Positions 1,664-23,121 of a stretch of 64,000 nt of DNA are shown here, piece by piece (positions within the stretch are counted from its first letter, which is position 1; every line of letters starts with the position of its first letter). The DNA comes from Candidatus Latescibacterota bacterium (GTDB lineage Bacteria; Latescibacterota; UBA2968; UBA8231). The stretch covers positions 3,456,001 through 3,520,000 of the forward strand of contig OZ241867.1 of NCBI GenBank assembly GCA_965203175.1. The letters are read 5' to 3'. Below the pieces are notes generated by a model. It saw nothing but the letters and a program-made list of their open reading frames with translations, had not been told where the DNA came from and made no database searches. A program made the translations under genes and the position numbers.

Positions 1664-2458
1664 TTATTTTCTCATCACTAGGCGTGCTCCAATACCACAG
1701 TAGCGGAGCGATTGATCAAAGCTGAAGCGTTTGGCTGACCGCACGTTGCGCGCGTGATTGACAAAGCCGCCCCCGCGCATAACGCGGGTGGAGCCCGAAG
1801 CAGCTCCAGTAGGGTCTATCTGTTTGGTGCTTGAATAGGCGTTGCTGTACCAGTCTTGCACCCACTCCCATACATTGCCGTGCATATCGTATAGCCCCCA
1901 CGGATTTGGCCGCTTTGAACCCACCGGTTGGGCAAATTTTCCCTCCGCGTCTCCCATGTTTCCTATGTACCAAGCATAGTCGCCCAACAGGCTGTCGTCG
2001 TCCCCAAAGGAACGGCTCGTCGTGGTCCCGGCCCGGCAGGCGTATTCCCACTCGGCTTCGGTAGGCAGGCGGTACAAATCTCTGTCGGCGGCTTGGTTCA
2101 AGCGGCGGAGGAATTCCTGCATATCGATCCACGAGATATAGACTGCCGGGTGATTCGGCTCAGCCCGTACGTACTTGCGTCGGGTCCACGGTGCGGTCCC
2201 CATCACTGCGATCCATTGGGCCTGGGTAATCTCAAATTTACCCAAGTAAAATCCCTTGCTTATCGAGACCTCGTGCTGAGGGCCTTCGTCTTCACCTCGT
2301 ATAGGGGCTGAGGCTGGCGATCCCATCAGAAAGGTACCTGGTTCGATCCACACGAATTCCATGGTGACTCCGTCGCGGAGTTCCACAACAGTGTTCTCGG
2401 ATTGACCTGCAGTTGTGCACGTGATGCCCATCATTAGGGCGGCAAAAATCTGCCTCAT
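1664..2458 (-). CDS. Secreted formylglycine-generating-enzyme (FGE-sulfatase/SUMF1-like) domain protein, probably non-catalytic
   Basis: Signal peptide, motifs FLMGS, RLPTEAEWEYACRAG, NPWGLYDMHGNVWEW, RVMRGG; lacks the FGE catalytic Cys motif after RGG. Confidence 0.9.
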   Translation of the reverse strand: MRQIFAALMMGITCTTAGQSENTVVELRDGVTMEFVWIEPGTFLMGSPASAPIRGEDEGPQHEVSISKGFYLGKFEITQAQWIAVMGTAPWTRRKYVRAEPNHPAVYISWIDMQEFLRRLNQAADRDLYRLPTEAEWEYACRAGTTTSRSFGDDDSLLGDYAWYIGNMGDAEGKFAQPVGSKRPNPWGLYDMHGNVWEWVQDWYSNAYSSTKQIDPTGAASGSTRVMRGGGFVNHARNVRSAKRFSFDQSLRYCGIGARLVMRK

Positions 2459-2555
2459 TCCGCACCTCTGGATCTATGAATGGCAGAGGCATGCAACTTT
2501 TTAGCAAAACAAAAAAGCGGCAAAACCATCGCCCACATCCTACGGTTTTCTGTTC

Positions 2556-2584
2556 TTGCCGCAGTAGAAGCTAATACCTATAAT
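2556..2584 (+). promoter_or_regulatory. sigma70-type promoter for the CRTAC1 gene
   Basis: TTGCCG-N17-TATAAT. Confidence 0.65.
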
Positions 2585-2640
2585 TCCCCATCCATGCGAC
2601 CGTTATTACCTGTTTAGTTCACCTCTACAGCGATGAGTAT

Positions 2641-4332
2641 ATGGAGCTTTTTTATCGTCGCCGTGCCTTTGTCTCTGCCTTGGCGCTGGCCGTGTTGCTG
2701 CCGGAATCTGTTCTACCCCAATTCACCGACCAAACGAAGGAAGCGCACATCGCCTTCCAACATGTGGCCGGCGGACATGAGAAAAAACACATTGTCGAAA
2801 CCTCCGGAGGCGGCGCTGCTTTTTTTGACTACGACAACGATGGCGATCTCGATCTATACGCGGTCAACGGCGCTACGGTCAATACCTACCGGCAAAAATC
2901 CGGACCGGGCAATGTTCTCTACCGCAACCAAGGTAACGGCACCTTTGCCGATGTGACCTTACTTGCCGGCGTTGGGGACCGCAGTTGGGGCATGGGCTGT
3001 ACCGTGGGCGACATCGACGGCGATGGGTACCGCGATCTGTACGTGACCAATTATGGTCCCAATGTTCTCTACCGCAATCAAGGCAACGGTACCTTTGAGG
3101 ACATTTCCGCTGGGGTAGCAGGGAACGATTATAGCTCCAGCGCTGCTTTTTTGGATTACGATGGCGACGGTGATCTCGATTTATACGTTGCCAATTATCT
3201 CGTCTACGATTTTGACTCTCCTCCGGATAAGGTCTGTACCTACGAGGGAATCGAGATCTTCTGCGGTCCCCAAGGCCTACCTGGAGCCGCCGACCGGTTC
3301 TACCGCAACAATGGGGACAACACCTTTACCGACGTCACCCGTCCTTCGGGTATCTCTTGGGCCAACCACTACTACGGGTTGGGTGTACTGCCCGAAGACT
3401 TCGACAACGATGGTGACACCGATCTCTTCGTGGCTAATGACGCAACTCCCAATGTACTCTTCGACAACAACCGCGATGGCACCTTTAGCGAAATTGGCCT
3501 CAAAGCAGGCATCGCGTATAACGAATACGGCGAGGAAGAGGCGGGTATGGGGGTCAGCGGTGGAGACTATGACGCCGACGGTGATCTCGACCTCTATATA
3601 ACCCATTTTTTCCGCGAGAGTAATACCTTCTATCTCAACGACGGACAGGGCCATTTCAAAGATATAACAACCCAGATCGGTCTAGAAGAACCCACGCTTG
3701 GGATGCTGGGGTGGGGCACCCAATTCTTCGACTATGACAGGGACGGCGACTTGGATCTATTCGTCGCTAATGGCCATGTCTATCCGCAGGCGGCTAGCGC
3801 CATTGCAAGCACTTCCTACCCCCAGCGCAATCAGTTGCTCCGCAACGAAGACTACGACCGTTTAATCGATATAGGAGCTGCGGCTGGTCCGGGAATGGGT
3901 CTCAAAAGGGTCAGCCGCGGTGCCAGTTTCGGCGACTACGACAACGATGGCGATGTGGACATTTTCGTCGTCAATTTGGACGAGGCGAGCACCCTGCTAC
4001 GCAACGACTTCGCCCCCGTCAACAACTGGCTTGTCGTCCAACTTCTAGGCCGTGTCCCCAATCGCGACGCCGTCGGTGCCAAGATCCGTTTGCTGGCCGG
4101 TGGCCGATCCCAGTGGCGCACGGCTAATGGCGCTTCCAGCTATCTCTCCTACAACGATATACGTATTTTCTTCGGCTTGGGTGAGGAAGAAGGGGCAGAT
4201 GAAGTGGAGGTCACTTGGCCCGACGGTACCCGTCAGATAGTGCCAGCGACACCGGCCAATAAGCTGTTGGTAATCCGCCAAAACGGCCCCTACTCCTTTA
4301 TGGAGATGGGGGCCAACATCTACGCAGAGTAA
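2641..4332 (+). CDS. CRTAC1-family protein (FG-GAP/VCBS repeats + ASPIC/UnbV)
   Basis: Signal peptide, repeated DYDNDGDLDLYV motifs, C-terminal SRGASFGDYDNDG...AVGAKI...SSYLS...FGLG...VTWPDG. Confidence 0.92.
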   Translation: MELFYRRRAFVSALALAVLLPESVLPQFTDQTKEAHIAFQHVAGGHEKKHIVETSGGGAAFFDYDNDGDLDLYAVNGATVNTYRQKSGPGNVLYRNQGNGTFADVTLLAGVGDRSWGMGCTVGDIDGDGYRDLYVTNYGPNVLYRNQGNGTFEDISAGVAGNDYSSSAAFLDYDGDGDLDLYVANYLVYDFDSPPDKVCTYEGIEIFCGPQGLPGAADRFYRNNGDNTFTDVTRPSGISWANHYYGLGVLPEDFDNDGDTDLFVANDATPNVLFDNNRDGTFSEIGLKAGIAYNEYGEEEAGMGVSGGDYDADGDLDLYITHFFRESNTFYLNDGQGHFKDITTQIGLEEPTLGMLGWGTQFFDYDRDGDLDLFVANGHVYPQAASAIASTSYPQRNQLLRNEDYDRLIDIGAAAGPGMGLKRVSRGASFGDYDNDGDVDIFVVNLDEASTLLRNDFAPVNNWLVVQLLGRVPNRDAVGAKIRLLAGGRSQWRTANGASSYLSYNDIRIFFGLGEEEGADEVEVTWPDGTRQIVPATPANKLLVIRQNGPYSFMEMGANIYAE

Positions 4333-4345
4333 GACCTATAGGCCT

Positions 4346-6010
4346 CTATCCCTCCCCGAAAGCGGCTCTGAGGTTGTCCTCCCGAATAACCACCTTCGAT
4401 GCGTATTTATTCCGCACTTCTTCGATAAACAGATTAAAGGCCTTTCTGTTTTTTTCTCTTCTAAGCTGGGATCGGACTCTCCACTCAGCCTCTTGAAAAG
4501 TCTCTCGCTTGCGTTCTCTAGAAAGCACCTTAAATATAGAATAACCTTCATCTACCTTGGCCGGGCCGGTGATTACTCCTATTTCGGCTTTTTCGGCGAC
4601 TTCTACAAAACCACCGAGAAAGGCCTGTTCGAAAAGATGGAAGTGGAACCGGCCCTCTTCATCCAGATCCTCTAGCGAGCGGATAGAATACTTCTTGGCC
4701 AAATCGCCTAATCGGGCTCCCTTTTGGATCTGCTCCATCAACCTCAGTGCCTCGGCCTCCGTCTCTACTAGAACCTCTTGTACTTCAATTTGCTCGGGGT
4801 GCATATATCTTTCCGCATGGGCCTCGTAAAATTGGCGTAACTCGTTTTCAGCGATGGTCACTTTAGCTCTCAGGAGCCGCGCCCTAAGAGCACTTATCAA
4901 GAGTTGATTTGCTTGATTCCCCAACCACTCGACCGCCTCTGCTTCCTCGTCTATGCCAGCACGCAGGGCCGCTTCCACAAGCATTGCATTGGGCACGACA
5001 TGGCGCTCGGCAAAAGCGATCACTTGGCTGGAGTCGCTGAGTTGGGCCAAGGCGTTGCCTTTCAGGACGTGGCCAGCGTCTGCCAAGTCCTGAGCGGTTA
5101 TTTCTCCGCCGTCGTACCTATAGAGAACTATATTGCGTTCCGTCTCCGAGGCAAAAGATGAACCGCCACGCACTTTTTCGACAATGAGCGCGAGCCCTTC
5201 CCGATCCAATTCGAGGTGGTATTTTTCCTTGAATTCAGTGACCAAAGTTGATAGTGCCCGCTGCTTTTTTTCCTTTTTCAGTCCCATTTGAATCGCCAAT
5301 CTCCTCTGAGGACTGAGTTCGATGGTAGAGTCGGCGATGACTGTAAATATCGAATAGTTTCCACCGATTTTTATGGGCTCGGAGACTTCGCCCAAGGCGA
5401 GGGAAAACAGCTTGTCCTGAAGGGGCATGACCATGTGTTCCCGGGTGGTATAACGGCCTAAGTCACCGCCTTGAGCCGCGGTTTTTTTGTTTATGGACCA
5501 TTTTTGGGCGACTTGCCCAAAAGGCACCCCATTTTTGAGTTCCCGGAGGGCGGCCGAAGCATTTTCGCGGCTGGGAACCATTATATCGGCCAATCTGACT
5601 GCTCGAGTGAGCCCCATGCGTTCAGCGTATTCCCGCACTTCGTCCTCCACCACTTCCTCCTCTACTTCCAGCTCTCTGTCTTGGAAAATGCTGATCAACT
5701 TTTCCCGCTGGACCCTTTCCAGCCGGGCGCGAAATTCAGGGCTTTTGTCGAGATCGGCCGCCTTCGCCTCCATGATCAGTAGTTGGATATTGATCATGGT
5801 GTTCAAATGATTCTTTGCTTCTTCTACCCTAGTGGTCTCCGCCTTGGCCTCTTTGGGGAGGCCGGCGATAAATTTCCGCAACTGGTCAACTGTTATCTCC
5901 TCATCACCTATCTGAGCAACGGTTCGGTCTCCTGTTTCCACTGTGCAACCCGTAAGTGCGGTAAAAAGCAAAAGTGGCAAAAGCCAATATGCAGTCATTT
6001 CTCTTGGCAT
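4346..6010 (-). CDS. Lipoprotein with two PpiC/parvulin peptidyl-prolyl isomerase domains (SurA/PrsA-like chaperone)
   Basis: Lipobox LTGC; SurA-like N-terminus VAQIGDEEIT; two rotamase units (FGQVAQKWS...GGDLG...SEPIK and LGDLAKKYS...GPAKVDEGYSIFKV). Confidence 0.85.
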   Translation of the reverse strand: MPREMTAYWLLPLLLFTALTGCTVETGDRTVAQIGDEEITVDQLRKFIAGLPKEAKAETTRVEEAKNHLNTMINIQLLIMEAKAADLDKSPEFRARLERVQREKLISIFQDRELEVEEEVVEDEVREYAERMGLTRAVRLADIMVPSRENASAALRELKNGVPFGQVAQKWSINKKTAAQGGDLGRYTTREHMVMPLQDKLFSLALGEVSEPIKIGGNYSIFTVIADSTIELSPQRRLAIQMGLKKEKKQRALSTLVTEFKEKYHLELDREGLALIVEKVRGGSSFASETERNIVLYRYDGGEITAQDLADAGHVLKGNALAQLSDSSQVIAFAERHVVPNAMLVEAALRAGIDEEAEAVEWLGNQANQLLISALRARLLRAKVTIAENELRQFYEAHAERYMHPEQIEVQEVLVETEAEALRLMEQIQKGARLGDLAKKYSIRSLEDLDEEGRFHFHLFEQAFLGGFVEVAEKAEIGVITGPAKVDEGYSIFKVLSRERKRETFQEAEWRVRSQLRREKNRKAFNLFIEEVRNKYASKVVIREDNLRAAFGEG

Positions 6011-6049
6011 GTAGCCCAGATCTCCTCTGTATTCCTGTGCATAGGTAGA

Positions 6050-8758
6050 TTAATCCAAACCGGCAAATACCGTGGCAAAAGCCATTCTACCTGTTTCGGT
6101 TTCGTTATCTATGGCCCTTCTAGTCAGTCTGAGTCCCATCAGGGTCGTCAAATTGTAGCCCAAGTAGTTTGAGTTATTGGCGAACTGGGCTGCGCCCACA
6201 ATTTCACGGAAGTCGTCTAGCAATCCTTCCTTGACTGCTTCATCCGAATCCCTGAGCTGTTGGAAAACGGTGTACTCCACACCGGCCTGCATGGTAGAGT
6301 TATTAAACAATGGCCACCGGGCCAATAAAGTAAAAATCAGCGTGTCTTCCTTCCGTTTGGGATCTGATTTAAGCGCTGGAGATTCTATCCTCAATTCGTT
6401 TTTAATTTTTGGCTGGATGTCGAGATTAATGAATTTGAGAACATAGTCCACTTTATTAATCAGACCGACAAAAACGAAGTCCTGTCGCAGGTCGGGTTGT
6501 CTCTCCCTTTGACGCCAGCGGTCGTATTTCAGCTTGTTGATGATATTTAGATTCTTCAGCTTGGTATAGTTGAAGCTTATATAGGACGAATTTATCCACG
6601 TATTCCGGGCCGCCAGAGGATCAATGGTAGGGACGTTTCGTCTCTCGAATTCGTCCCACTGGCGAAGGTCGTTCTCTATATTGTCCTTGGCTAGCCTGAA
6701 GTTTTCAAAAATCCTCAGCTTGCCTAGTCCGGGGTAGTCCTTTTCCAGCGTAAAAAGCAAGTAATGGGTGGTGTTTTGTCCATCGCCGGCAATGAGGCTT
6801 TCGTCGGTGCGGCCGACCGTCAATCTCGTCTCTGGAGTAATGTTGACGCCTGCATAAAGGTTGTATCCACCTAAATCCCTACCATAGGGGAGATCTGCTT
6901 CATCGTCGTTTTCGAACCGATCTACCCATATATTGTTATTCATATCTATGCCGAACAGATACTCGGGTCGGTCCGTAGAATAGCGCAGAAAGGGCTCATC
7001 GTAGTCGGGTACTAAGTTGGGCAGGTCTTCGCTGTCGTTTTGATTGAAATCGGAGATAAAATCGACGTTCTCATCCAAGCCAGGAAATACGTTCAAGTCT
7101 ATGCTTTCGTATATCCTCTGCCAATCGGGGTAGCGATCCTGATCGTCGTTGTCGTCGACGAGTTCGTAGTAGAATCTCGTCCGGTCTTCGTAATCTATGT
7201 TGACCTCGCCCCGAGCCAAGATAGCGCTTGTAGTATAATTGTGGTCCATACTGTAAGCCTCGCCAAAAAAGAACCACGGCTGGACAATTCTCGACAGATT
7301 CAACATCCAGCCATCGCCTTGGTCAAAAGCCGACAGGTGTTTTGTATGCTGCCTGTTGGGGTATTTTCGGTAACTCCTACTGCGGTCGAATTCGCCGTAA
7401 AAATCAAACCCCGCAATATTGTTCGTCTCCAGAGTCAGACCGAAAATTTCGGTGGCGGTCGGCAAACCGTACGGGATCTTGAGGACTCTGAGATTGGAGC
7501 CATCTTTGACATTTTCTTCGGCTCTGGTCGCCAGCAGAAACACGTTGTTGTTTTGCCGGTTATTCTGGCGGTTCGAAGACACCTCGATTCTGTAGTCGTT
7601 GGCAACCACCAGTTCAAAAGTCACTCTTCTTATCTCCGAGGGGTCGGGACCAGTGTAGGTTCCCTCGGAAAAATCGTATACTAATTCAATCTGCTCAGAG
7701 CCACTAGCTTCCCAGAAACCCAAGCGCTGAAAGCCGCCCTGAGGCGAGGGCTTGAGACCGGCTTCGCTGGCCCGGACAACCTCCCGCTCAACCCCCCGTT
7801 CTCCCTCCTCATCAATGATTTCGACATCGGCTTCTATGATCATATCCCAAGCGAAGAGGGTAGCGCCGCCTTCGTTATCTTCAGGCGAATCGTCGGTCAG
7901 ACGGACGAAGAGCTGGGTGATATTTTCAGCATTTTGACTAGAAGTGATCGAACCACTCCTAGGAGTTCCTTCAAAGGCATCTAAGAGTTGGAAGGAATTG
8001 TGAGCGCTTACATAGTTGGCCCCGATTCTGACAAAATCGCCTACTTGGGCAACAGCCCGCCCACCCATCAGCGTTGTCAGGCTGGTCGTTTGGTTGACCG
8101 CAGGGTTGCGAGGACCGGCCCCGCCGGGCGAAGAGATTCGCGAGAGGATCGTCGTGACTTGGTATTTGTCGGCTTGGTAGTCTACCTGGATTCCATCCAA
8201 GGCCGGCTTTGAGAAGGTCATCGGGGTAAGGGTCGAGCGGATTTGATTGCCTATGGTTATAGCCAAGTTGTGTTGGCCCTTCTGATCAGAGGCAATGACC
8301 AAATTGGTGAACCAGTCTTGGAATTTCTGGGTCTTGAATAAATTGCTGCCTCCTTGCTGGGGTTGTGTCTGGGACCAGTCGTAGAGCAACCATCCTCTAG
8401 TGATGTAGGAACCGTAAATATCGTAGAAGTAATCCCCGGCTAAATTGATATCTACATAGCGCTCATAGTGATCCCTAGCGTAGTTGGTGTATTCCCACTG
8501 TTTCCAACGGTATTCTAGAAAAAGTTCTTGGGGTACGTACCACTTTTTGACTGCCGGATCCAAAGCACCGAACAGCACACCGGATCCGGTTGGTTCAAAG
8601 GTGAGTTCAGCTCCCCGGCGCACACCTTTTATGCGCATCGGATCGACATCTTGGGCTTGCGCGTCGGTGTCAAATGACATGGAAGCGAGCAAGGAGCAAA
8701 CTATAGTAACTGAACTAATACTGCGCAGTAGAGTGTTGCAAATATGGCAGGTCAGCAT
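6050..8758 (-). CDS. Large exported hypothetical protein, probable outer-membrane beta-barrel with Asp/Asn-rich Ca-binding-like loops
   Basis: 902-aa ORF, signal peptide (AQA|Q), many amphipathic strands, DDNDDQDRYPD / DENVDFISDFNQND / DMNNN motifs. Confidence 0.65.
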   Translation of the reverse strand: MLTCHICNTLLRSISSVTIVCSLLASMSFDTDAQAQDVDPMRIKGVRRGAELTFEPTGSGVLFGALDPAVKKWYVPQELFLEYRWKQWEYTNYARDHYERYVDINLAGDYFYDIYGSYITRGWLLYDWSQTQPQQGGSNLFKTQKFQDWFTNLVIASDQKGQHNLAITIGNQIRSTLTPMTFSKPALDGIQVDYQADKYQVTTILSRISSPGGAGPRNPAVNQTTSLTTLMGGRAVAQVGDFVRIGANYVSAHNSFQLLDAFEGTPRSGSITSSQNAENITQLFVRLTDDSPEDNEGGATLFAWDMIIEADVEIIDEEGERGVEREVVRASEAGLKPSPQGGFQRLGFWEASGSEQIELVYDFSEGTYTGPDPSEIRRVTFELVVANDYRIEVSSNRQNNRQNNNVFLLATRAEENVKDGSNLRVLKIPYGLPTATEIFGLTLETNNIAGFDFYGEFDRSRSYRKYPNRQHTKHLSAFDQGDGWMLNLSRIVQPWFFFGEAYSMDHNYTTSAILARGEVNIDYEDRTRFYYELVDDNDDQDRYPDWQRIYESIDLNVFPGLDENVDFISDFNQNDSEDLPNLVPDYDEPFLRYSTDRPEYLFGIDMNNNIWVDRFENDDEADLPYGRDLGGYNLYAGVNITPETRLTVGRTDESLIAGDGQNTTHYLLFTLEKDYPGLGKLRIFENFRLAKDNIENDLRQWDEFERRNVPTIDPLAARNTWINSSYISFNYTKLKNLNIINKLKYDRWRQRERQPDLRQDFVFVGLINKVDYVLKFINLDIQPKIKNELRIESPALKSDPKRKEDTLIFTLLARWPLFNNSTMQAGVEYTVFQQLRDSDEAVKEGLLDDFREIVGAAQFANNSNYLGYNLTTLMGLRLTRRAIDNETETGRMAFATVFAGLD

Positions 8759-8796
8759 GAGAGTTCCACCCTAGCTTTCAGGTAAAATGGGAATAA

Positions 8797-10521
8797 TTAA
8801 TAGACTATTGGGACAATTTTCGTCTTACTCTCGGACCCTGAATCTGCATCAATTTCCACTCGTACCAAATAGATTCCGGGTAGCACTTTGGCACCGCTCT
8901 CGTCCGTTCCATCCCAAGCCTTTTGGTATCTCCTACTGGGATCCAAGCCTGAATAGATCGCCTTTATACGTCTTCCAGAAAGATCGTATACCCCCACCGA
9001 AACCAAAGCACCACCCGTCAGGTTGACGATGTCATAAGTCACCAAGACTTCATCATTTAGGCCATCGCCGTTGGGAGTAAAAGGGACGGGAGCCACTTTC
9101 ATAGAATGAATGAGGTCTTTACCTACTGAGATCTCGACCGAAAGATCATCTCCCTGTGCCTCAAAATCAGAGGCTGCGTCCCCCTCGGTGACTACTTGGG
9201 GCAGATTGTCCGGCTCTTGGCTATCGGAGACTCTGCCGGCAAAAAAGGTATTGTACTGCAAAGCCACGTTCTCAAAGACTACTCGCAAGGTGCGGTTTCC
9301 CACAATCTGGGGGAAGCTAATTTGGACCCCGTCTTCTGTATCTGTCTTTTCCCATTCGACATCGGTTCCGTCTATTTGCACGGAGCGCACTACATCTACC
9401 GGTGCCATAGTCTTTAGTTCGAGACGGTTAAAGCCGCGGCTGTTGACGGTTCTCACGGCATAGGTAAAGGGGGTGTTCTGCCCGATCAGAGCACGTTGGG
9501 GCCAGATTTCGCCCACCAGTGAGTCGGCTAGGGCAGGAGACACCTCAAAGGCGAGGGAATCAACTGTCGCCGCTGCTAGTATATCGCTGGTCTTAAGGAG
9601 TAAACGGAACTGAAAAAAACGACGCGGAGTTGGTGATTCAATAGCTGTGTGGACTCCGGCAGGATAGGGAGGGGACCAAGCGCTCCAAGACAGCGAATCG
9701 CTGGGATCTGGTGTGTTACCACTCCGGGTCACTAGGATGGCAGCCGTTTTTGTTGGTTCGCCGATGCTCCCCCTAGCCCATGTTATGTCGCCAAAGACCG
9801 CGGGTTGTTCTCGATCAAATACTTTTGAGGTATACGATGACGTAGAGGCAAAACCCGCACCAAAGACTTGAAACTCGTCAATTTCCCACTCCCCTCGCAC
9901 TAGTTGCTTCACCTCTATGAAACGAACAAACTGTAGGGGGACGGTCAGATCAACGGTCGGCTTGAGGTTGCGTTCCTCGGTTTTAAAAACCTTGAAATCC
10001 GGCGTCCCGGCTAGGGTTTTCTGCTCTTCGCTGCCGTCGTTCAGCAGCAATTCATAGCCCTTCAGAAAAAACTCTTCAAATCCCTTCCGCGGAAAAAACT
10101 TGATCCGATTGACTCCGAAGCGCTCGCCCAAATCTAGCCTGAATATAACGCCTGTGGGGGAACCGCCCTTCACTTCAAAAGCCTTGGTCGTATCGCCACT
10201 GACCATATGCGCCAATTGTTCATTCAAAAGACTCGAGGATATTTCGAGTATTATTTTCGCATTGGGAGACGTTACGGTCCCTCCTCTTTCAAATATTTTC
10301 AGGACGATATTGTCTTCGGGACCTGTCTGAGCAGGCTGAATCTGGCCGGGGCTGGTATCGAAATCAATAACCGATATCTCGGAATAATGGTCATCCCACG
10401 CTAGAGTACCTGGACCGCCGCCAATGACGATCGTCTCTCCATAGCCTTGGGTCGGCGTAAGTCCCTGCAATAGACAAGAAAACGCTAATAGCGCGGTCTT
10501 GACCAACGGTGGTTTGTCCAA
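8797..10521 (-). CDS. Secreted protein with discoidin-like module and C-terminal FlgD-Ig/CHU_C-like domain (paralogue 3)
   Basis: Signal peptide; DLGERFGVNRIKFFP; C-terminus PVPFTPNGDGLND...VYDLSGR...WDGTDESG...PGIY...IVPIVY. Confidence 0.8.
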   Translation of the reverse strand: MDKPPLVKTALLAFSCLLQGLTPTQGYGETIVIGGGPGTLAWDDHYSEISVIDFDTSPGQIQPAQTGPEDNIVLKIFERGGTVTSPNAKIILEISSSLLNEQLAHMVSGDTTKAFEVKGGSPTGVIFRLDLGERFGVNRIKFFPRKGFEEFFLKGYELLLNDGSEEQKTLAGTPDFKVFKTEERNLKPTVDLTVPLQFVRFIEVKQLVRGEWEIDEFQVFGAGFASTSSYTSKVFDREQPAVFGDITWARGSIGEPTKTAAILVTRSGNTPDPSDSLSWSAWSPPYPAGVHTAIESPTPRRFFQFRLLLKTSDILAAATVDSLAFEVSPALADSLVGEIWPQRALIGQNTPFTYAVRTVNSRGFNRLELKTMAPVDVVRSVQIDGTDVEWEKTDTEDGVQISFPQIVGNRTLRVVFENVALQYNTFFAGRVSDSQEPDNLPQVVTEGDAASDFEAQGDDLSVEISVGKDLIHSMKVAPVPFTPNGDGLNDEVLVTYDIVNLTGGALVSVGVYDLSGRRIKAIYSGLDPSRRYQKAWDGTDESGAKVLPGIYLVRVEIDADSGSESKTKIVPIVY

Positions 10522-10546
10522 TCTGTTCCTCTCGGATCGCAGAAGA

Positions 10547-13201
10547 TCAATAGGAGACGTGTACTAAGCGGTAGTCCGAGGTATTTCTACTCGATTTTGA
10601 ATCGACCTTAGCGTCGATCCTCAGCACATATATGCCAGGAGGCACCAAAGCTCCGGAGTTATCGACTCCGGTCCAGACCACGGAATGCCGTCCCGTAGTT
10701 ATGTACTCTTCGCGTAGTTGGTGAATGAGACGCCCACCTAGATCGTATATTTGCACCTGTAACGGCGTTGATGTCTTCACCCGCATGAGTGAAAAACTCA
10801 CAGCCATATCATCGTTGATGCCGTCTCCGTTAGGGGTGAAGATTTTATTTTTAACTTCGATATCCCCCAGTACTGCACCCCTTTCGAGGGCCAGAATCAC
10901 GGTTTTTTCGCTATCTGTGATCTCGTTTGCATCACCCGGATCCACTCTTTGCCACGAATTGGGAATGGAAGAATGGCCGATAGAGCCATTGAAGAATGTG
11001 GTAAAATCGAATATGGTCGCCGCAAACTGAAGCTCGACCAACGCGGCCCCGCCCTTGATCGGAGTAGGCAAACGCACCCAAAGCGAATCGGAATCATCAG
11101 ACACAACCTCAAATCCCTCGCTTTGAGCGGTATAGGTTTGAGTCGGTTGCCCTGTGAGGCTCAGGTGGGCTTGCTGAAATTTCATTTTGACGCTAGAGGG
11201 AGCTTCAATGAGAATCTCGTCAAAACCCTCGTTAGCCGGCTCGAAGGTCGTGCGGACGAAATAGGAAAACAGTTGCTCAGCGCCAATCGTCTCGAGTTGA
11301 GGGGGCAATACCTCGCCAATAATTGTTTTGGCGACTGGTGTTACAAAGTTGAGTTTCACCCAGCGCAGTGTAGCGGCCACGAGGGGATTTTCCGTGAGAA
11401 AGGTCGCCCGGATGGCGACGAATTTACGCGGACTGGGCGAGGTGATTTTGTCTCCCGAATTGAAATAGCGTTGACTCCAACCGCTCCAATCGCTGCCCGG
11501 GTTGGTCTGGGTAACGACGGGTCCAACAGAGGCATCCCCAAAGAACTTTTTGTCCGTAGCGTGCGCTTTCGCTGCTTCTTCTTCGGTGCCCGGAAATAAC
11601 TCACCGTTCTTTTTGTAGTAGAGCGTAGTAGTTTTGATCGTATTGCCAGTGCGGGTCTGGAGAATAATATCCGTGCCCGGCGGCATATCCGCATCCCATT
11701 CTATAGACGCCAAATTTTGGGGAGAGGCCCCCAACTCTATGAACGCCGCAGGCCCGTCAAAGACTGATTCGATCCGGGCCTCGGGCATGTATCCCTCGCC
11801 GAAAAACTGAATCTCTGACAAGCCGTGGCGTCCGGCCCTTACATGGAGCTTATAGGTGAAAGAAAAATGCTCGACTTTGGTGAGTGGGAACTTAAAATCG
11901 TGGTACGACTCGTTCCCATTGATATTGTCGAGCGATCCTACTGTTTTCCACGCCAGGCTTCCGCCAGCATTGGTGGAACCATCTGAGACTTCGATGCGAT
12001 AGGCGCGAAAAGGCCCAGGAGGCCGACTGCTGGCTTGGAGCACGCGGACATTGTCCAAGAAGAAGGCCCCTCCCAGATCCACCACTAGGGCACGCTCGAC
12101 ATCCGGTGGCTCCGAAGGTAGCAGTCTGTCGGGATTGTACCCTCCTTGAGCGGGCCAGTACAACGCCTTATCTACACTATATATTACCCCGTCTACCACC
12201 ACACCCTCAGCACCGTTGTTTTCCCAACTCGTTACCTTGCCACCCCGCTCCAGGACTCCAACCCCGATATTGTCGCCGATCGACCAGACTTCCACTTCCG
12301 CCAATCGAGGCAGCTCGCGGCGATAGTAGACGATAGGGCCTTGACTGTCCCCGCCAGCCAAGGCTTCCCAATCCTCGCGTCCTTCCAATAATCTCAGCCT
12401 TCCCGAGGTTTCTCGGCGGAAGTATTCTATGTCGCCCTGCTGGTCGGGGTCGAGGTTCTCGTAAGCGGACTGGGAAACTGGTCTCGCTTTGCCAAAATCG
12501 CTGTCTGTGACGCCGACAGAGACGAATCTGATCACATCGCCGGTAAAATCCCCGCGCACCTGTGTCCATTTGGTAGGCAACTGGTTGGTCAAATCGACTT
12601 CAAAGACCCGTTCATTCTTGATGGGCTTGTTCGTTGAGAAGCGTTTCCTGTACACCAGCGGTCCAATGATCGTCTCCCCCTGAGAGGTTAGAACCTTGAA
12701 TTGGAGAAAGGGGTCTCCCAAATCTTCCCCGACAAACTTGAGGACGATCTTATTGGCTGATACGGCCCGCCCTAAATCGATTTGCACCCACCAATCTCTA
12801 AGGGGGCTAGAAGTATCCGGCTCCCAGTAGGTGTCCATCCTGCCATCCATGAGATTTTCTGCGCTCAAGCGATTGGAACCGGCCTCCCATATCCCGCCGC
12901 CGAACTCGGAGGCATTTAAAACCGCGTTAATGCCAGGGACTACCTGTTCAATGCCATCTATTTCGAGCTTGGTGCTTTTGCGTATAAAAGCTGGTTTTAC
13001 GCCCTCCTCGGTGATCTGGATGGTCTTTGCCACCGACTGCCAACGAGCCCAGTGATCCTCGGACTCGATGATAGCCGCGCCGTCTTGGATAGAAAAGCCT
13101 TCTTGCCCCCAAGCTGCGTCACCTAGGAACATTCTACCTAGGAGGCAGACCAAGCTAGTGCTCACCAACTTGAATGTTCTCATGTGTTGGTCTCCACTCA
13201 T
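10547..13201 (-). CDS. Secreted protein with two discoidin/F5-8-like modules and C-terminal FlgD-Ig/CHU_C-like domain (paralogue 2)
   Basis: Signal peptide; NLMDGRMDTYWEP...WVQIDLG; second VDG...DLGG module; C-terminus FTPNGDGIND...IYDLGGR...WTGVDNSG...PPGIY...LVHVSY. Confidence 0.8.
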   Translation of the reverse strand: MSGDQHMRTFKLVSTSLVCLLGRMFLGDAAWGQEGFSIQDGAAIIESEDHWARWQSVAKTIQITEEGVKPAFIRKSTKLEIDGIEQVVPGINAVLNASEFGGGIWEAGSNRLSAENLMDGRMDTYWEPDTSSPLRDWWVQIDLGRAVSANKIVLKFVGEDLGDPFLQFKVLTSQGETIIGPLVYRKRFSTNKPIKNERVFEVDLTNQLPTKWTQVRGDFTGDVIRFVSVGVTDSDFGKARPVSQSAYENLDPDQQGDIEYFRRETSGRLRLLEGREDWEALAGGDSQGPIVYYRRELPRLAEVEVWSIGDNIGVGVLERGGKVTSWENNGAEGVVVDGVIYSVDKALYWPAQGGYNPDRLLPSEPPDVERALVVDLGGAFFLDNVRVLQASSRPPGPFRAYRIEVSDGSTNAGGSLAWKTVGSLDNINGNESYHDFKFPLTKVEHFSFTYKLHVRAGRHGLSEIQFFGEGYMPEARIESVFDGPAAFIELGASPQNLASIEWDADMPPGTDIILQTRTGNTIKTTTLYYKKNGELFPGTEEEAAKAHATDKKFFGDASVGPVVTQTNPGSDWSGWSQRYFNSGDKITSPSPRKFVAIRATFLTENPLVAATLRWVKLNFVTPVAKTIIGEVLPPQLETIGAEQLFSYFVRTTFEPANEGFDEILIEAPSSVKMKFQQAHLSLTGQPTQTYTAQSEGFEVVSDDSDSLWVRLPTPIKGGAALVELQFAATIFDFTTFFNGSIGHSSIPNSWQRVDPGDANEITDSEKTVILALERGAVLGDIEVKNKIFTPNGDGINDDMAVSFSLMRVKTSTPLQVQIYDLGGRLIHQLREEYITTGRHSVVWTGVDNSGALVPPGIYVLRIDAKVDSKSSRNTSDYRLVHVSY

Positions 13202-13216
13202 AGGGGCGATTAAGAA

Positions 13217-15172
13217 TCAATAGGCCACGGCGATAACGCCGCTCTTGATGCCCTCTTCCGATTGGATATCTACTGCTATTCGATACAAGTATAGTCCTGG
13301 GGGGACCAGCCGGTTGGAGTGGTCTGTCCCATCCCAAGAGTGGGAGTACTCTCCGATGGGAATGTCCCCGGCGTATATTTGCTTAACTAGTCGACCGGAC
13401 AGGTCGAAGATTTCCACGGAGACTGGAACCTGAGACGTTACCCGCAAGAGCTTATAGGAAATATGCACCACATCGTTAATGGCATCGCCATTGGGCGTAA
13501 AGGGATTGGGCCCAATCTGTGGTGCAAATACCAGTGAGCTGCTCAGCGATGTTTTCACTGCAATCCCGTCGCTCTCAATCTCGTCGGCAGCGTTGCCCGG
13601 GTTGATGCGCTGACGCACCTCGTTCGGCTCGGCGCTATTGAACACCTTACCAGTAAACAGCGTGCCTACTTCCCTCAGCACCGGTGCGTTGAACACCACC
13701 TCGATCAGGGCTCCGCTGTCGGTAGGCTCCAGCTTGCGCGGGAAGTTGATCTCAAAACCTAAGCCATCCGAGGTTCTCGCCCAGATAAAGTCGTTGTAGT
13801 TGATGCCGTCTATGCGTAGCGAATCGACTGAAACCACCCCTGAGGGCGTGGAAATCTCTACGCCGTCAAAGCCCATGTCGCTGGCCCGGATGGTCGGTCG
13901 GATGAAGTAAGTGAAATGCGTCGCTTGCCCCACTTGGGTATCCACTGGGAAAATTTCTCCCACTAAGCCGTGCACGGCCGGCGGCACGGAGGCCTTGAAC
14001 TCGACATAATCGATCTTGCCTCCATCCTCGATAGTAGAAAAGAAGTCCACTTTGAGTTGTAAAAATTGGCGCGGACTAGGGGAAACGATGCCAGTCCCCG
14101 AGTTTTCAAACAGATAGGGACTGGACCAGAAACTCCAGTTTTCCGTATCGGGGCTCACTCTATCCTGGGGTTTTACCGGCTTGAGAACATCGAGCAGCTT
14201 GCTGTAGCGGCGCTTGTATTCGCTCAGGGTCAAGTCGCCACCGCCATCGCGAAATTGCACGCTGTCCCGCTGCTCGGGTCGCAGTTGCCAAAAAATGTCG
14301 GGATGTGGATCTGTTCCCGTCCGGGTGCGGATATCGACCCGGGCGTCCGTATCTTGCCGGCCCGACCAGCGAATCTCACCCCAACTGGCTAGGCCGCCCA
14401 GATCGACTACTTCGGACTCATACGCGGCCCGGGCTACGAAACCACCGCCGTAGAGTTCAAAATCGGCGAGCCCTATTTCCTTGGGTGTGTCGCGAAAAAT
14501 CAGTAATTGGACCGTTTGAGTCGATATCGGCGGGTCTAAAATCACGCTGACTTCAGGTTCGGTATTTTCTTTTACTTCGGCTACGGTCGGGAAATAGGAC
14601 ATTCTGTTGCCAATATTGACCAGCCTCTCATCGAGGGAGCCAATGGCGAGCCGCTCCACAAAGTGCTCTGGCTTTTCCGCCAGAGGGCGAAATCTCACTT
14701 CCCGGATGAGAAATCGCCCGCCTAAATCAAAAGTCAATTGTTCACTGAGGGTCCGCGAAGTGCCCACCTGAAAGCTCTCTGGAGCTACGGCTGGCCACGT
14801 GAGGCCCGTAGTCGGATCGCCATCGACCAAGACCTCTCCAATCAGTTTATTTTGATTGGCGAAAAGCCGCACCCGTACCCAACCACCTCTGCTCAATAGG
14901 GTCGCGGCGATGTCTTCGTCCTCATCAAAGTAGTTAGGTTGCAGTGAACCCGCCGGCAAAGAGTCCAGATCGAGGCCATCCTGTAGTTGGGAGACCGACC
15001 ATTCGATTTCCCTGAAATCGATGCCGAGATCTGCAAGACTGTCTTTTTCTGTTGTTGAAAAAGGCGTGCCAATTCTATAAATAACCACGCCGGAGACATT
15101 TGGGGGGCAGAGGCCGACACCTAGCAACGCGAGTAAAAGTAGCCCTATTGACTTAGGTGCAAGCATGCCCAA
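13217..15172 (-). CDS. Secreted protein with discoidin-like module and C-terminal FlgD-Ig/CHU_C-like domain (paralogue 1)
   Basis: Signal peptide; VDGDPTT...FDLGGRFLIREVRFRP; C-terminus PNPFTPNGDAIND...IFDLSGR...WDGTDHS...PPGLY...VIAVAY. Confidence 0.8.
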   Translation of the reverse strand: MGMLAPKSIGLLLLALLGVGLCPPNVSGVVIYRIGTPFSTTEKDSLADLGIDFREIEWSVSQLQDGLDLDSLPAGSLQPNYFDEDEDIAATLLSRGGWVRVRLFANQNKLIGEVLVDGDPTTGLTWPAVAPESFQVGTSRTLSEQLTFDLGGRFLIREVRFRPLAEKPEHFVERLAIGSLDERLVNIGNRMSYFPTVAEVKENTEPEVSVILDPPISTQTVQLLIFRDTPKEIGLADFELYGGGFVARAAYESEVVDLGGLASWGEIRWSGRQDTDARVDIRTRTGTDPHPDIFWQLRPEQRDSVQFRDGGGDLTLSEYKRRYSKLLDVLKPVKPQDRVSPDTENWSFWSSPYLFENSGTGIVSPSPRQFLQLKVDFFSTIEDGGKIDYVEFKASVPPAVHGLVGEIFPVDTQVGQATHFTYFIRPTIRASDMGFDGVEISTPSGVVSVDSLRIDGINYNDFIWARTSDGLGFEINFPRKLEPTDSGALIEVVFNAPVLREVGTLFTGKVFNSAEPNEVRQRINPGNAADEIESDGIAVKTSLSSSLVFAPQIGPNPFTPNGDAINDVVHISYKLLRVTSQVPVSVEIFDLSGRLVKQIYAGDIPIGEYSHSWDGTDHSNRLVPPGLYLYRIAVDIQSEEGIKSGVIAVAY

Positions 15173-15190
15173 TCCTTTGGCAAGATTATT

Positions 15191-15221
15191 AAAAAAGGGG
15201 GCGAAGATGACCTCGCCCCCT
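15191..15221 (-). terminator. Intrinsic terminator after the WGxIK-tailed gene
   Basis: Minus strand GGGGGCGAGG-TCAT-CTTCGCCCCC-TTTTTT. Confidence 0.85.
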
Positions 15222-15250
15222 AACTGCTCATTTTCTCTTACTTGTTCTCC

Positions 15251-16177
15251 TTAGTGGGAAAAACTCGCCTTGATGTCCCCCCAGCTATCCGACTCGACAG
15301 CAGTGCCTACGTTTTCACCCGCTACCCACATGCTCTCATCAAAGGGGAGCAGGACATAGTCAACCATAGCGGTAGCTTTGAAATAGATTTCCGTGTCGCC
15401 GCTATTGGTCCAATAGCCGTTGTACGAGCCTTCGGCACCGTTGTCATCGTCCTGAACGGCAAAACCAATACCCATGATTTCGCCTGCCTGCATAGTGTGG
15501 ACGATCACATCTTCGTCATCTATGCCCGTAGAGCTGGTAGGCAAATCGTCGAAGGGAGTGAACCACATCTCCATGAACAGGGTCCCGGCACCGCCATTGA
15601 TATCACCCTCAAAACTCCATTTGGCACCAGAATAAGGCTCGACTCCTGCCCACGGAGCTCCGCCCCAGAGCCACATGTGATTTTCTTGGTGTAGCGTGTA
15701 GCGGTAATTCTGGGATAGGGCCCCCTCCCATCTTTCCGGATCCAAATCCGCCGATTGTACATTCTGGAAGATGGCGTCGCCGCTGTGGTCGAAGTCCAAG
15801 GTCACCTCAACCGTATCGAAATTATTTTCGATGGTCCCGTAAAAGAAGTCGTCAAACCTTTCCTCCATGAAATACAAAATGTTGGTCACTGGACTCCAGC
15901 CGAAAATGATGCGCTCGGCTAGATTGGAAGGGTCGGGATCCCCTTGGGTGCCGGTGACGGTCTCGATCAGGTCTTCATGGGTCACCCAGAAGACCGCAGG
16001 CACGTTGTCCCATTCGCTTATATCTCCGTCCATCTGGACATCTCGTATGCCATCGACGCCAATAGGCACCTGAACTGCGGCCCAGTTTCTGTCTGTCCGC
16101 AGGTGAGCCGAACTGGCCACGACGGTGAAAAGGACAAAACTCAATGCCAAGAAGCTACAACTCATTGTTTTGCTCAT
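15251..16177 (-). CDS. Acidic secreted CBM9/DOMON-like protein with C-terminal TAVE-x3-WG-x-IKA tail
   Basis: Start placed at ATG 16177 before a hydrophobic signal peptide; MDGDISEWD motif typical of DOMON/CBM9-like domains; ends GTAVESDSWGDIKASFSH. Confidence 0.7.
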   Translation of the reverse strand: MSKTMSCSFLALSFVLFTVVASSAHLRTDRNWAAVQVPIGVDGIRDVQMDGDISEWDNVPAVFWVTHEDLIETVTGTQGDPDPSNLAERIIFGWSPVTNILYFMEERFDDFFYGTIENNFDTVEVTLDFDHSGDAIFQNVQSADLDPERWEGALSQNYRYTLHQENHMWLWGGAPWAGVEPYSGAKWSFEGDINGGAGTLFMEMWFTPFDDLPTSSTGIDDEDVIVHTMQAGEIMGIGFAVQDDDNGAEGSYNGYWTNSGDTEIYFKATAMVDYVLLPFDESMWVAGENVGTAVESDSWGDIKASFSH

Positions 16178-16460: not shown

Positions 16461-18137
16461 CTATCGATCTATGTGGACAATGCCCTCGCCCTCTTGCAGC
16501 ACCACGAGCCTATTGGCAGAGAGGTTTTCAAACCGTTCTTGTAGGCCACTTGGCCAGTGCACTACCAACAAGTCTATGGCTACTCTCTGACCCAAGCCGA
16601 AATGGGCTCTCAAATCATTGTGCGAGAGATAGCTGGCACCACTCCGGATTTCGGCGCTTTGCGTGAGCCCTCCACTGCGGACCTCAATCCTAGCCCCTAT
16701 GCCGTCTCTATTGCTTGCACTCCCTATAGTCTTGACCATTAACCAGTTATTCTCATTGCCTCCGTCGTTGCGCAACAAAGTGGGGCGATCGTTGATATTC
16801 AGGACAAATATGTCTAGATCTCCATCATCGTCGTAATCCCCAAAGGAAGCCCCTCTGCTCACTTTTTTAATCTCCAAGCCCTTCCCCGATAGCTGCGATA
16901 CCTCGATAAAGGTACCATCGCCCAAATTTTCAAAGAGTTGATTGGTCTGGGCATAGCTCGTGCCTAGGTTGGCCCTGTCCAATTGTGGGAAGAGGTGGCC
17001 ATTGGCGACGAAGAGATCTTTATCGCCGTCGTTGTCATAGTCGAAAAACTCGGTGCCCCAAGCCAAAAACTGGAAACTCTCCTTGCCCACGCCGGCGTCA
17101 AAGCTGAGGTCGGAAAAGAATGTGCCGCGGTCGTTGTGGTAAAGCGTATTGGTCTGCTCCCAGAAGTTGGTGACTAATATGTCTTGGTACAGGTCATTGT
17201 CGTAATCCCCATAGGCAATGCCCATGCAGCCTTGAGCCTCGCCGCTTTCGCCATAGGCAGCACCGATCATCCAGCCGATATCGGCAAAAGTCCCATCGCC
17301 TTGGTTCTGATAAAGGAAATTGGCCCCTGTGTCGTTGGCCACATAGATGTCCACATCGCCGTCCCGGTCGTAATCGCCGCCGACCACGCCCATACCGTAG
17401 AGCTTATCTTGGTCCACCACCCGCGCCTCCACGGTCACATCTGCAAAAATCCCGTCGCCTTGGTTGCGATATAGGATATCCCCACTTCCCTTCATTCCGC
17501 GCGGTCCGAAGTGAACCCTTAAACCTTTCCACATATAGGACTTATTGGGAGTAGTCTGCAGAAAGTGCTTGAAATCGACGTAATTGGCTACGTACAGGTC
17601 TAGATATCCGTCGCCATCGTAATCGAGGAAGGCGCATCCTGTGCCGAATCGCTCGTCTCCTACTTGGGCGTACTCGGTCACATCGACAAAAGTCCCGTCG
17701 CCTTGGTTAGCGTACAGTACGTTCCTGCCGTAGTTGGTTATATAAATGTCCAAATCGCCATCGTTGTCGTAATCGCCGACGGCGCAGCCCATACCCCAGC
17801 CTGCGTCGCCCAAGTTTGCTTCGTCGGTAGCATCGACGAATTTACCACGCTCGTTTCTATAAAAGGTATTGCGCGGGTGCTCTTGATCTGGAAAGCCAAC
17901 TACCTTCGACCCGTTCAAGATGTACAAATCCAAATCTCCGTCTTGGTCGTAGTCGAAAAAAGCCGAGCCTCCCATCATGCTGTCGACTAAGTACGTCTGT
18001 TCGCTATCCCCGGAGACGTTCTGCGCCACAACCCCCACTTCCTCTGCTACATCCACGAACTGGACTCGCCTTTCTACTGCCCGTTCTTCGACAGCTAAGA
18101 GCCGTGAGGAAATGAGTAGGAGAAAAAAGAAATGCAT
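16461..18137 (-). CDS. CRTAC1-family protein (FG-GAP + ASPIC/UnbV)
   Basis: Repeated DYDxDGDxD motifs; SNRDGIGARI...SYLS...HFGLG...WPSG. Confidence 0.92.
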   Translation of the reverse strand: MHFFFLLLISSRLLAVEERAVERRVQFVDVAEEVGVVAQNVSGDSEQTYLVDSMMGGSAFFDYDQDGDLDLYILNGSKVVGFPDQEHPRNTFYRNERGKFVDATDEANLGDAGWGMGCAVGDYDNDGDLDIYITNYGRNVLYANQGDGTFVDVTEYAQVGDERFGTGCAFLDYDGDGYLDLYVANYVDFKHFLQTTPNKSYMWKGLRVHFGPRGMKGSGDILYRNQGDGIFADVTVEARVVDQDKLYGMGVVGGDYDRDGDVDIYVANDTGANFLYQNQGDGTFADIGWMIGAAYGESGEAQGCMGIAYGDYDNDLYQDILVTNFWEQTNTLYHNDRGTFFSDLSFDAGVGKESFQFLAWGTEFFDYDNDGDKDLFVANGHLFPQLDRANLGTSYAQTNQLFENLGDGTFIEVSQLSGKGLEIKKVSRGASFGDYDDDGDLDIFVLNINDRPTLLRNDGGNENNWLMVKTIGSASNRDGIGARIEVRSGGLTQSAEIRSGASYLSHNDLRAHFGLGQRVAIDLLVVHWPSGLQERFENLSANRLVVLQEGEGIVHIDR

Positions 18138-18166
18138 ATAAACTAGCAGTCTCTATGAGGTGGGGG

Positions 18167-19708: not shown

Positions 19709-19765
19709 AGAGAAATTACCCTCTCGCAAAGAGCATCGTGAATCTTGCCAAACGGGCGGGGGAGA

Positions 19766-21997: not shown

Positions 21998-22140
21998 AGA
22001 GCGATCTGCCTTGTCATTGTCATTATTGCTCTCTGCCAGCCTGCCCCTGCAACCTGGACGAGGGGATAGACCAGCCTTTCGTGCTCCATCATAAAAGACG
22101 GCTGCCATACAATCTATTTTTAAGTGCGCAACAACCGAGC

Positions 22141-23121
22141 CTACTCGAAAAACCCGTCGGGGTACGGATCGGGATTGAGCAGAGGAGCCGTCCAGTCGCC
22201 AATTTCGTCCAGCCTCACCGGGGCACCGCCGCACTCCACGTGCGATTTGAAGCCGGCGAGAAACATCTGCACCTTCTCGTAGATGGCCTCGTAGGGTTCG
22301 GGCATTTTTCGGGTTTCGAACATCTCCTGCATCTCCAGCAGCAGGGGAACCCAAAAGTGGATGCCGCTGTGCACGAACTGCTCGAAGGTGCGCTCCCCGA
22401 ACACCCGAATCCAGCCCCACGTCCCCGATATTTCCTGCAGCGATCCGTAAAAAGTCTTTCCGCCTTCTCCTCTGGGTTCGTATTCAAAGGTGAGGTGACC
22501 ATTGGGGACATGCCAGTCGGGCGTTTGGTAGGCCACGCTCTTAATGCCGCCGCCGATACATGCGTAGATCATGTACAGGCCGTGAATGCCATGGGTGGCG
22601 TAATCGGACATGGAGTTGGCCGCGGCAAAACCCCTGATCGGTTCAATGGCCGCCACTTCGCGTTTGATGTGCTCAATTTCCGGTGCCGAGCCGAAGGATG
22701 AACCCGACATGATGGGAGTGTCGTGCTTTTTGGACAAATCAATTATTTCCTGCGCGTCTTGGAGGTTAAGGGCAAAAGGGCGGTTGATGAAGATGGGGAC
22801 GCCGGCCTCCAAATAGGGTCTGGCCAGTTCCTTGAAATGCAGAGTTGAGTCAAAATCGGAGAGAATGACACCGTCTACCTTGCCGACCATATCCCAATAG
22901 TTCTCCACCGCTTCGACTCCTTTGTATGTATCGCAGAAGTCCTTGACGCCTTCTTTGTCCATATCCCAGACGTGGGTCATGACCATGCCCGTCATACGCG
23001 TCGTGCAGCCCATGAATTGGCGCGGGCAAGAGGGATCTATGATAGGACCCCATATACCTGAGATGTGCACGTACCGGGCGCAGGTTAGAACGCCCACTCT
23101 GACGAGAGATACATTCGACAT
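22141..23121 (-). CDS. Gfo/Idh/MocA-family oxidoreductase
   Basis: RVGVL N-terminus, VDGVIL, LEAGVPIFINRPFA, GSS, YATHGIH. Confidence 0.75.
   Translation of the reverse strand: MSNVSLVRVGVLTCARYVHISGIWGPIIDPSCPRQFMGCTTRMTGMVMTHVWDMDKEGVKDFCDTYKGVEAVENYWDMVGKVDGVILSDFDSTLHFKELARPYLEAGVPIFINRPFALNLQDAQEIIDLSKKHDTPIMSGSSFGSAPEIEHIKREVAAIEPIRGFAAANSMSDYATHGIHGLYMIYACIGGGIKSVAYQTPDWHVPNGHLTFEYEPRGEGGKTFYGSLQEISGTWGWIRVFGERTFEQFVHSGIHFWVPLLLEMQEMFETRKMPEPYEAIYEKVQMFLAGFKSHVECGGAPVRLDEIGDWTAPLLNPDPYPDGFFE

Follow-up and report, generated by a model that had tools for sequence, protein, structure and literature searches.

Introduction

The SusC/SusD loci of Bacteroidota occur as dozens of paralogous loci in which a large barrel is combined with surface glycan-binding proteins, the TonB/ExbB/ExbD genes being located elsewhere. 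A different kind of clustering is described for the T9SS, where the genes of type-B substrates are clustered with a PorP/SprF gene and the substrates themselves are PorV-independent and probably uncleaved (accessible part of PMC10202324). The PorP-like proteins are 14-stranded and bind their own type-B substrate, the genes being clustered here as well (accessible part of PMC9143113).

We describe a six-gene cassette located in a window of 64,000 nucleotides (the whole stretch of DNA that was analyzed) from a Candidatus Latescibacterota genome of 6.58 Mb, assembled in one contig and 93% complete. With the SusC/SusD loci, as they are generally known, the cassette shares its many paralogous copies, a large barrel, glycan-binding-type proteins and motor genes placed elsewhere, but its barrel B has no TonB-dependent receptor or plug match, the partners are CTD-tailed proteins instead of lipoproteins, there is no SusD, and no hydrolase genes are seen nearby. 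Compared with the type-B CTD proteins of the T9SS, as represented by the SprB–SprF and PG1035–PorP pairs in the accessible parts of PMC9143113 and PMC10202324, the common traits are an FTPNGDG-type tail that is apparently uncleaved, a tailed gene upstream of the barrel gene and the presence of SprA in the genome. Whereas the PorP/SprF proteins are 14-stranded members of the FadL family of about 300 aa (strand count from the accessible part of PMC9143113), B has about 870 aa in its mature form, about 24 strands and two large inserts. The cassette differs from type-B T9SS loci also in that its cargo bodies belong to one family in fixed subtypes, and that a dedicated parvulin and a second type of tail are added.

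Organization of the cassette

The six genes follow each other in the order W, C1, C3, C2, B and P, all on the minus strand, with gaps of 78, 15, 25, 38 and 39 nt. Re-reading of the ORFs agrees with a preliminary description of this locus as regards co-orientation, gene order, motifs and gaps of 15–78 nt. W (15251–16177, ATG at 16177) encodes a predicted secreted CBM9/DOMON-like protein of 308 aa with a TAVExxSWGxIK tail, and a terminator-like hairpin of 11 pairs with a T-run (15221–15196, minus strand) lies between W and C1. Three tailed paralogues come next: C1 (13217–15172, 651 aa, subtype 1), with a conserved body and an FTPNGD tail ending in Tyr; C3 (10547–13201, 884 aa, subtype 3), with a Pfam F5/8 type C domain; and C2 (8797–10521, 574 aa, subtype 2), whose all-β model includes a CBM32-like module and resembles PorU in its C-terminal part. 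B (6050–8758, 902 aa) is a predicted outer-membrane β-barrel of about 24 strands, and P (4346–6010, 554 aa) a predicted lipoprotein with two parvulin domains (SurA/PrsA-like). Signal peptides had been assigned to all six products, and an N-terminal hydrophobic stretch is indeed found in each of them by a simple hydropathy scan, as distinct from a signal-peptide predictor; no other 19-residue segment exceeds a mean hydropathy of 1.42. The assignment of P as a two-parvulin lipoprotein is borne out by two rotamase stretches (PF00639, 71.1 bits, under every NCBIfam equivalog cut-off) and a lipobox-like LTGC; a lipobox-like motif is present in 30 of the 41 ORFs of its family in the genome.

Conservation, expansion and neighboring genes

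The genome holds 62 barrel genes (51 of the main type, 11 divergent), 169 C genes, 41 P-family ORFs and 42 W-family genes, and these four families cover 665 kb, or 10.1% of the genome. When genes separated by less than 4.5 kb are taken together, 40 barrel loci result, all of which contain a C gene, 33 a P gene and 31 a W gene; to the question of copies per genome, raised in the preliminary description, the answer for this genome is 40 loci and 62 barrels. B is present in all 24 genomes of the same genus and missing from all 16 genomes that represent other families of the class. Among 151 genomes drawn evenly from the phylum, 91 carry B, the same 91 carry the C family (E up to 1e-30) and 88 the W family, and the 60 barrel-less genomes contain neither C family nor W family nor the WGxIK tail pattern. 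SprA, on the other hand, is matched in all 151 genomes, in 149 of them over the cut-off. Since the 60 barrel-less genomes belong to four families, the joint absence of B and C counts as a few events and not as 60.

Relatives of B, with up to 96% identity, come mostly from Latescibacterota and in some cases from Gemmatimonadota or Handelsmanbacteria. Among the best 80 of 617 relative loci, 58 are at least 20 kb long, and of these all 58 contain C, 48 contain P and 48 contain W; in the same 80 loci the complete order W-C1-C3-C2-B-P recurs six times (L043, L044, L045, L048, L052, L079), and C1-C3-C2-B followed by P is seen in L053–L056 at 63–67% identity. The synteny across related genomes that had been proposed as a check is observed. 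The cassette is a genuine envelope module, conserved and present in greatly multiplied copies, of which no description was found in a literature search. Expansion to tens of loci is of a kind known from polysaccharide utilization loci.

Several neighbors recur as well. In the window, a gene for a DUF6785 protein (1–1585, minus strand) continues past the window edge, and FG-GAP/ASPIC-UnbV proteins, assigned by Pfam, are encoded at 2641–4332 (plus strand) and, upstream of W, at 16461–18137 (minus strand). The flanks of the cassette (1664–4332 and 16461–22420) hold an FGE-sulfatase-domain gene, three FG-GAP/ASPIC-UnbV genes and one TPR gene. Based on a crude non-overlapping ORF call, and counting genes within 4 kb of barrel loci, we find 23 of the 59 DUF6785 copies of the genome (3.8 expected), 27 of 60 ASPIC-UnbV copies (3.9 expected, about sevenfold enrichment) and 14 of 18 copies of a 250-aa lipoprotein (1.2 expected). 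DUF6785 proteins thus recur beside cassettes without being an obligate part of them: they occur in 140 of the 151 genomes sampled from the phylum, including all 60 barrel-less ones, and frequently number in the tens per genome, and are absent from all 11 barrel-bearing f10 genomes, a range wider than that of B and different from it. The literature search gave no paper on DUF6785. No glycoside hydrolase family was obvious, as judged by eye, among the recurrent neighbor clusters of the cassettes.

The barrel protein

B has no match in Pfam, NCBIfam or PDB sequences. Its model (pLDDT 83.2, pTM 0.78) contains about 23–24 long strands, a conserved aromatic N-terminal segment, an inserted β-sandwich (about residues 257–431) and an Asp/Asn-rich insert (about residues 505–628); hydrophobic alternation is found in most of the strands and is weak in some. 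In structure comparisons, all 50 VIA rows and all the Foldseek rows listed are membrane barrels. The Foldseek list is led by Deinococcus SDBC/SlpA, the FimD/PapC ushers, MtrB and LptD (E 1e-7 to 1e-5), and over the rows listed TMq is at most 0.26, with rmsd above 12 and identity of at most 10%. With these proteins B shares the overall barrel fold of its model, but their genes have no partners in common with the cassette; as regards FimD/PapC, there is no Pfam match and the fold similarity is generic (TMq 0.19–0.20, rmsd > 27). B is therefore predicted from its model to be a large outer-membrane barrel without known family or close structural match, in line with the earlier view of the 902-aa protein as a membrane barrel that could not be assigned.

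Two known classes were considered and rejected for B. A PorP/SprF or PorV barrel does not agree with the about 23–24 strands and the absence of a family match to PF11751, TIGR03519 or NF033709, and a SusC/TonB-dependent transporter is not indicated by Pfam. TonB-dependent barrels of the ordinary type are also present in the genome, with 30 PF00593 matches, none of which falls on a B gene. The Pfam and PDB sequence searches revealed neither a TonB box in B nor any homology to a plug.

The tailed C family

C1, C2 and C3 carry the FTPNGDxxND motif and pass the Pfam cut-off of CHU_C (PF13585; 27.2, 33.6 and 38.4 bits, cut-off 27) as well as that of FlgD_ig, and remain under that of TIGR04131 (16.6, 23.7 and 31.5 bits vs. 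35). Together with the PorU-like model, this agrees with the description of three paralogues with a FlgD-Ig/CHU_C-like end, a tail that is T9SS-like in sequence and fold. A tail profile splits its matches in the genome cleanly into 169 above 70 bits, all ending in Tyr, which constitute the C family, and 74 at 60 bits or less, the ends of which are mostly Lys, Arg or Glu, like type-A tails. All 169 C proteins are homologous outside the tail, with a CBM32-type module, an Ig-type domain and a PorU-like Tyr-ending tail; they fall into one body cluster, vs. 29 for the 74 type-A-tailed proteins. This single homologous family does not support the idea of the tailed proteins as ordinary cargo. Model and profile place the C proteins in the galactose-binding-like CBM32 / F5-8 type C fold, and a C protein modeled on its own gives a complete globular chain (pLDDT 96). 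The subtypes occur in fixed order, and orphan C1-C3 and C0-C4 pairs exist. A C gene lies directly upstream of 43 of the 62 barrels, and subtype 2 does so in 17 of its 26 copies.

W, its tail and the hairpin

W itself has no Pfam match; eight of 31 aligned paralogues match CBM9_1 (best E 3.2e-6), and the W-family profile matches the solved CBM9 chain 1i82 with E 4e-4. A CBM9-like fold is thus predicted for W by profile, ligand binding being putative. Of the proposal that W is a WGxIK-tailed CBM9/DOMON-like protein, the tail is directly visible, and the CBM9 part comes from the paralogues and the family profile. The mature W chain apparently starts with His (window positions 16103–16105), as in metal-binding N-termini, and so do about 33 of the 42 copies by a loose pattern; a second His of the family (DHSGG) is nearly invariant.

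The C-terminal end of W is TAVESDSWGDIKASFSH. The TAVExxSWGxIK tail (15251–15310 in W) terminates about 96–102 ORFs genome-wide, distributed over 25 body clusters. Neither an NCBIfam or Pfam model nor, in the literature search, a paper was found for the WGxIK tail; WGxIK-like tails are known from Poribacteria. The tail pattern is present in 83 of the 91 barrel genomes and in none of the 60 barrel-less ones, and 8 of the 11 f10 genomes carry barrels yet give no match to it. The motif TAV[E] precedes 76 of 96 WGxIK tails and 31 of the 74 tails of type A; for the C tails the count is 8 of 169, against a background of 18 of 500. As TAV[E] is common to WGxIK and type-A tails, we infer that the tail of W resembles a cleavage region followed by a short signal; the C tail is probably retained uncleaved, given that TAV[E] occurs before C tails at background level only.

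A strong hairpin with a T-run (by our own threshold of -10 kcal/mol) is found behind 30 of 42 W genes; the corresponding figures are 21 of 169 for C, 15 of 62 for B, 7 of 41 for P and 47 of 300 for genes outside these families. If only those genes are counted that have a cassette gene as their immediate downstream neighbor, the result is 13 of 18 for W vs. 20 of 162 for the others. W is the first gene in many cassettes, and the terminator-like hairpin behind it suggests that W is made in excess; contigs from RNA libraries agree with this in direction and cannot rank the genes. First-gene excess is known both for the binding proteins of uptake operons and for major pilins, so that an excess of W does not choose between the readings discussed below.

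T9SS components in the genome

A genome search for core T9SS genes recovered SprA, PorU and the PorV family over their cut-offs: SprA with 490 bits (contig 2481570–2487959), PorU with 632 bits, its gene being immediately followed by the top-scoring one of the PorV family (contig 2958213–2963109), and six PorV-family matches, all of them away from the cassettes. GldL, GldM and GldN, in contrast to type-B T9SS, have no match in the 93%-complete genome, no positive control having passed the cut-off. No PorP/SprF exceeds the cut-off in the genome: PF11751 matches nothing, and TIGR03519 gives a single weak match, to the PorV gene, also without positive control. As there is none in the cassette either, the locus is not a canonical PorP/SprF locus, in keeping with the preliminary description.

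Core loci and motor genes

The divergent barrels of the genome sit in four loci that also encode a TPR protein of 1080 aa and a DUF4159 protein with a membrane anchor, and two of these loci also hold ExbB and two ExbD genes. We compared 14 stretches from five distant genomes, 13 of them barrel-bearing. A core locus with the order C, PorV/PorP-like barrel, one to three divergent big barrels, TPR and ExbB is found in the present genome (G000, locus L016) and in G043, G046 and G053; two ExbD genes follow ExbB in G000, G043 and G053, the G046 stretch ending at ExbB. The conserved core locus (L016, L131, L136, L139–L140) continues behind the ExbD pair with a lipoprotein. The PorV/PorP-like genes of these loci (four copies) reach 36.7–59.8 bits with NF033709, under its cut-off of 90, and only one gene of this type adjoins a barrel in the present genome (L016, directly behind C). 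Among the 13 barrel-bearing distant stretches, six lack a C gene; in several, the barrel is accompanied by W-like, DUF4159 or DUF6785 genes. The PorV/PorP-like gene behind C at core loci and the barrels without C weaken the notion of B as a needed exporter of C.

In L127, a main-type barrel occurs together with W, a lipoprotein, two C genes and a TPR protein. This locus and the core loci with ExbB/ExbD tie the barrel family to a proton motor; the link involves the divergent subfamily (11 of 62 barrels) and one distant main-type locus, and the window cassette, like most others, contains no motor gene. The DUF4159 proteins have a TonB-like build, with one N-terminal membrane segment, which in several of them contains His, and a long linker that is basic or Pro-rich; examples are found at L123:4277–5512 and in L124, L125, L126 and L132–L135. 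Two cassette-type lipoproteins are fused to a TonB_C-like AgmX/PglI domain over its cut-off (L125:4665–5906, L126:75–1262). Two ExbB genes of the present genome (contig 5537719–5538570 and 6172155–6172901) have equal profile scores and matching N-termini, and correspond to a recent duplication or an assembly repeat. The divergent core loci thus resemble the Myxococcus Agl-Glt apparatus by an ExbB/ExbD-type motor, a TPR protein, an AgmX/PglI domain and several barrels, but the matches are at domain level, far under the GltG/GltJ cut-offs, and none is found in the window cassette.

Discussion

The earlier interpretation of the cassette as a cargo, barrel and chaperone analogue of type-B T9SS loci holds for the barrel, the conservation and the T9SS-like tail, and is not supported in its original form for the cargo status of the tailed proteins. 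Our tentative preference, short of an expectation that it will prove right, is for a surface device of capture and import, one of some forty variants in this genome, in which lectins exported by the T9SS dock on a new motor-energized uptake barrel. All six proteins would cross the inner membrane by Sec, and P would act in the periplasm to keep both B and the C proteins competent for folding. The C proteins would exit through the SprA translocon of the genome as type-B-like substrates, via a shared PorV/PorP-like shuttle, would keep their tail and would assemble on B in set combinations, with C2 as the core bound to the barrel and C1 and C3 as an exchangeable pair. W, made in excess and with its short tail preceded by TAV[E] as before type-A tails, would be an abundant binding protein. 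Bound glycans or other large solutes would traverse B, gated by its N-terminal segment, and B would be energized in trans by ExbB/ExbD and the TonB-like DUF4159 and TPR proteins from the core loci.

This uptake reading is favored by the single body family of the C proteins, the core loci, the C-less barrels elsewhere, the TonB-like DUF4159 proteins and the TAV[E] counts, and copy number, lectin folds and motor link are slightly easier to reconcile with an uptake platform than with B as exporter or anchor. Against it stand the absence of a motor gene from the window cassette, of a TonB box or plug from B and of obvious hydrolases nearby, as well as the ordinary TonB-dependent barrels that the genome already has and the different range of DUF6785; the shared shuttle, moreover, has against it that the single PorV/PorP-like gene of core-locus type beside a barrel would have to serve 169 substrates. 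B may instead serve the tailed proteins as their own exporter, shuttle or anchor, like an oversized PorP/SprF, and the cassette would then display lectin-type adhesins without import, WGxIK being a second signal; we consider this rather unlikely, if a serious contender. It would account for B and C marking an identical set of 91 genomes when SprA is present in all 151, for a tail pattern confined to barrel genomes though spread over 25 body clusters, and for C genes directly upstream of 43 of 62 barrels in a genome where no PorP/SprF exceeds the cut-off; type-B substrates also cluster with and bind their cognate barrel (accessible part of PMC9143113). Yet 62 exporters for one cargo family would seem uneconomical, core loci have a PorV/PorP-like gene behind C, C-less barrels exist, the 8 f10 genomes combine barrels with the absence of the tail pattern, and the phylogenetic profile, with barrel-less genomes from four families, may rest on very few loss events. 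Some pull back toward sorting nevertheless comes from the WGxIK tail, present on 25 body clusters yet, within the sample, only in barrel-bearing genomes. A broader formulation, to which we give a low probability, would make the barrel family the core of an undescribed proton-motor-driven route of protein sorting and display in Latescibacterota, with two signals (the Tyr-ending FTPNGDG domain and the TAVExxSWGxIK tail, the latter on roughly 100 proteins from about 25 families) and modular surface lectin complexes, each cassette providing a barrel and a chaperone.

Two further readings appear very improbable, to a similar degree. A chaperone-usher-like system, with B as usher-sized channel, P as chaperone, W as major subunit and the C proteins as minor lectin tips of a fiber or coat, would agree with the first position of W in many cassettes, the hairpin behind it (13 of 18 vs. 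20 of 162 other genes), a strand count similar to that of ushers and the presence of FimD and PapC among the Foldseek matches of B; these matches are however generic (TMq 0.19–0.20, rmsd > 27), W is CBM9-like and not of pilin fold, 9 of the 40 barrel loci lack W, and C is modeled at pLDDT 96 as a complete globular chain without a partner. In an Agl-Glt-like envelope or motility apparatus, an ExbB/ExbD motor would drive TPR and TonB-like proteins against adhesin-bearing barrels, C and W possibly acting in the periplasm. The motor, TPR, DUF4159 and AgmX/PglI-domain genes at divergent barrel loci would suit such an apparatus, as would the missing matches to GldL, GldM and GldN (a search without positive control), but forty diverged copies with variable lectin modules would fit a variety of substrates better, GltG and GltJ matches are far under their cut-offs, and most cassettes are without a motor gene.

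Up to a tenth of the genome, in a mostly uncultured phylum, is thus devoted to an envelope apparatus whose central barrel has neither a family nor a close solved structure, and the parts of the cassette are now sufficiently defined to be taken into expression and structural studies. Whichever way B acts, T9SS parts (SprA, PorU, PorV-family barrels and type-B-like tails) are used outside Bacteroidota, apparently without GldL, GldM and GldN. If B is an exporter or anchor, the cassettes would represent a sorting route of a new kind, whose short C-terminal signal is likewise new. If the uptake reading is right and B is an importer, they would constitute an alternative to SusC/SusD for the capture of large nutrients, and would help to explain what these bacteria eat.
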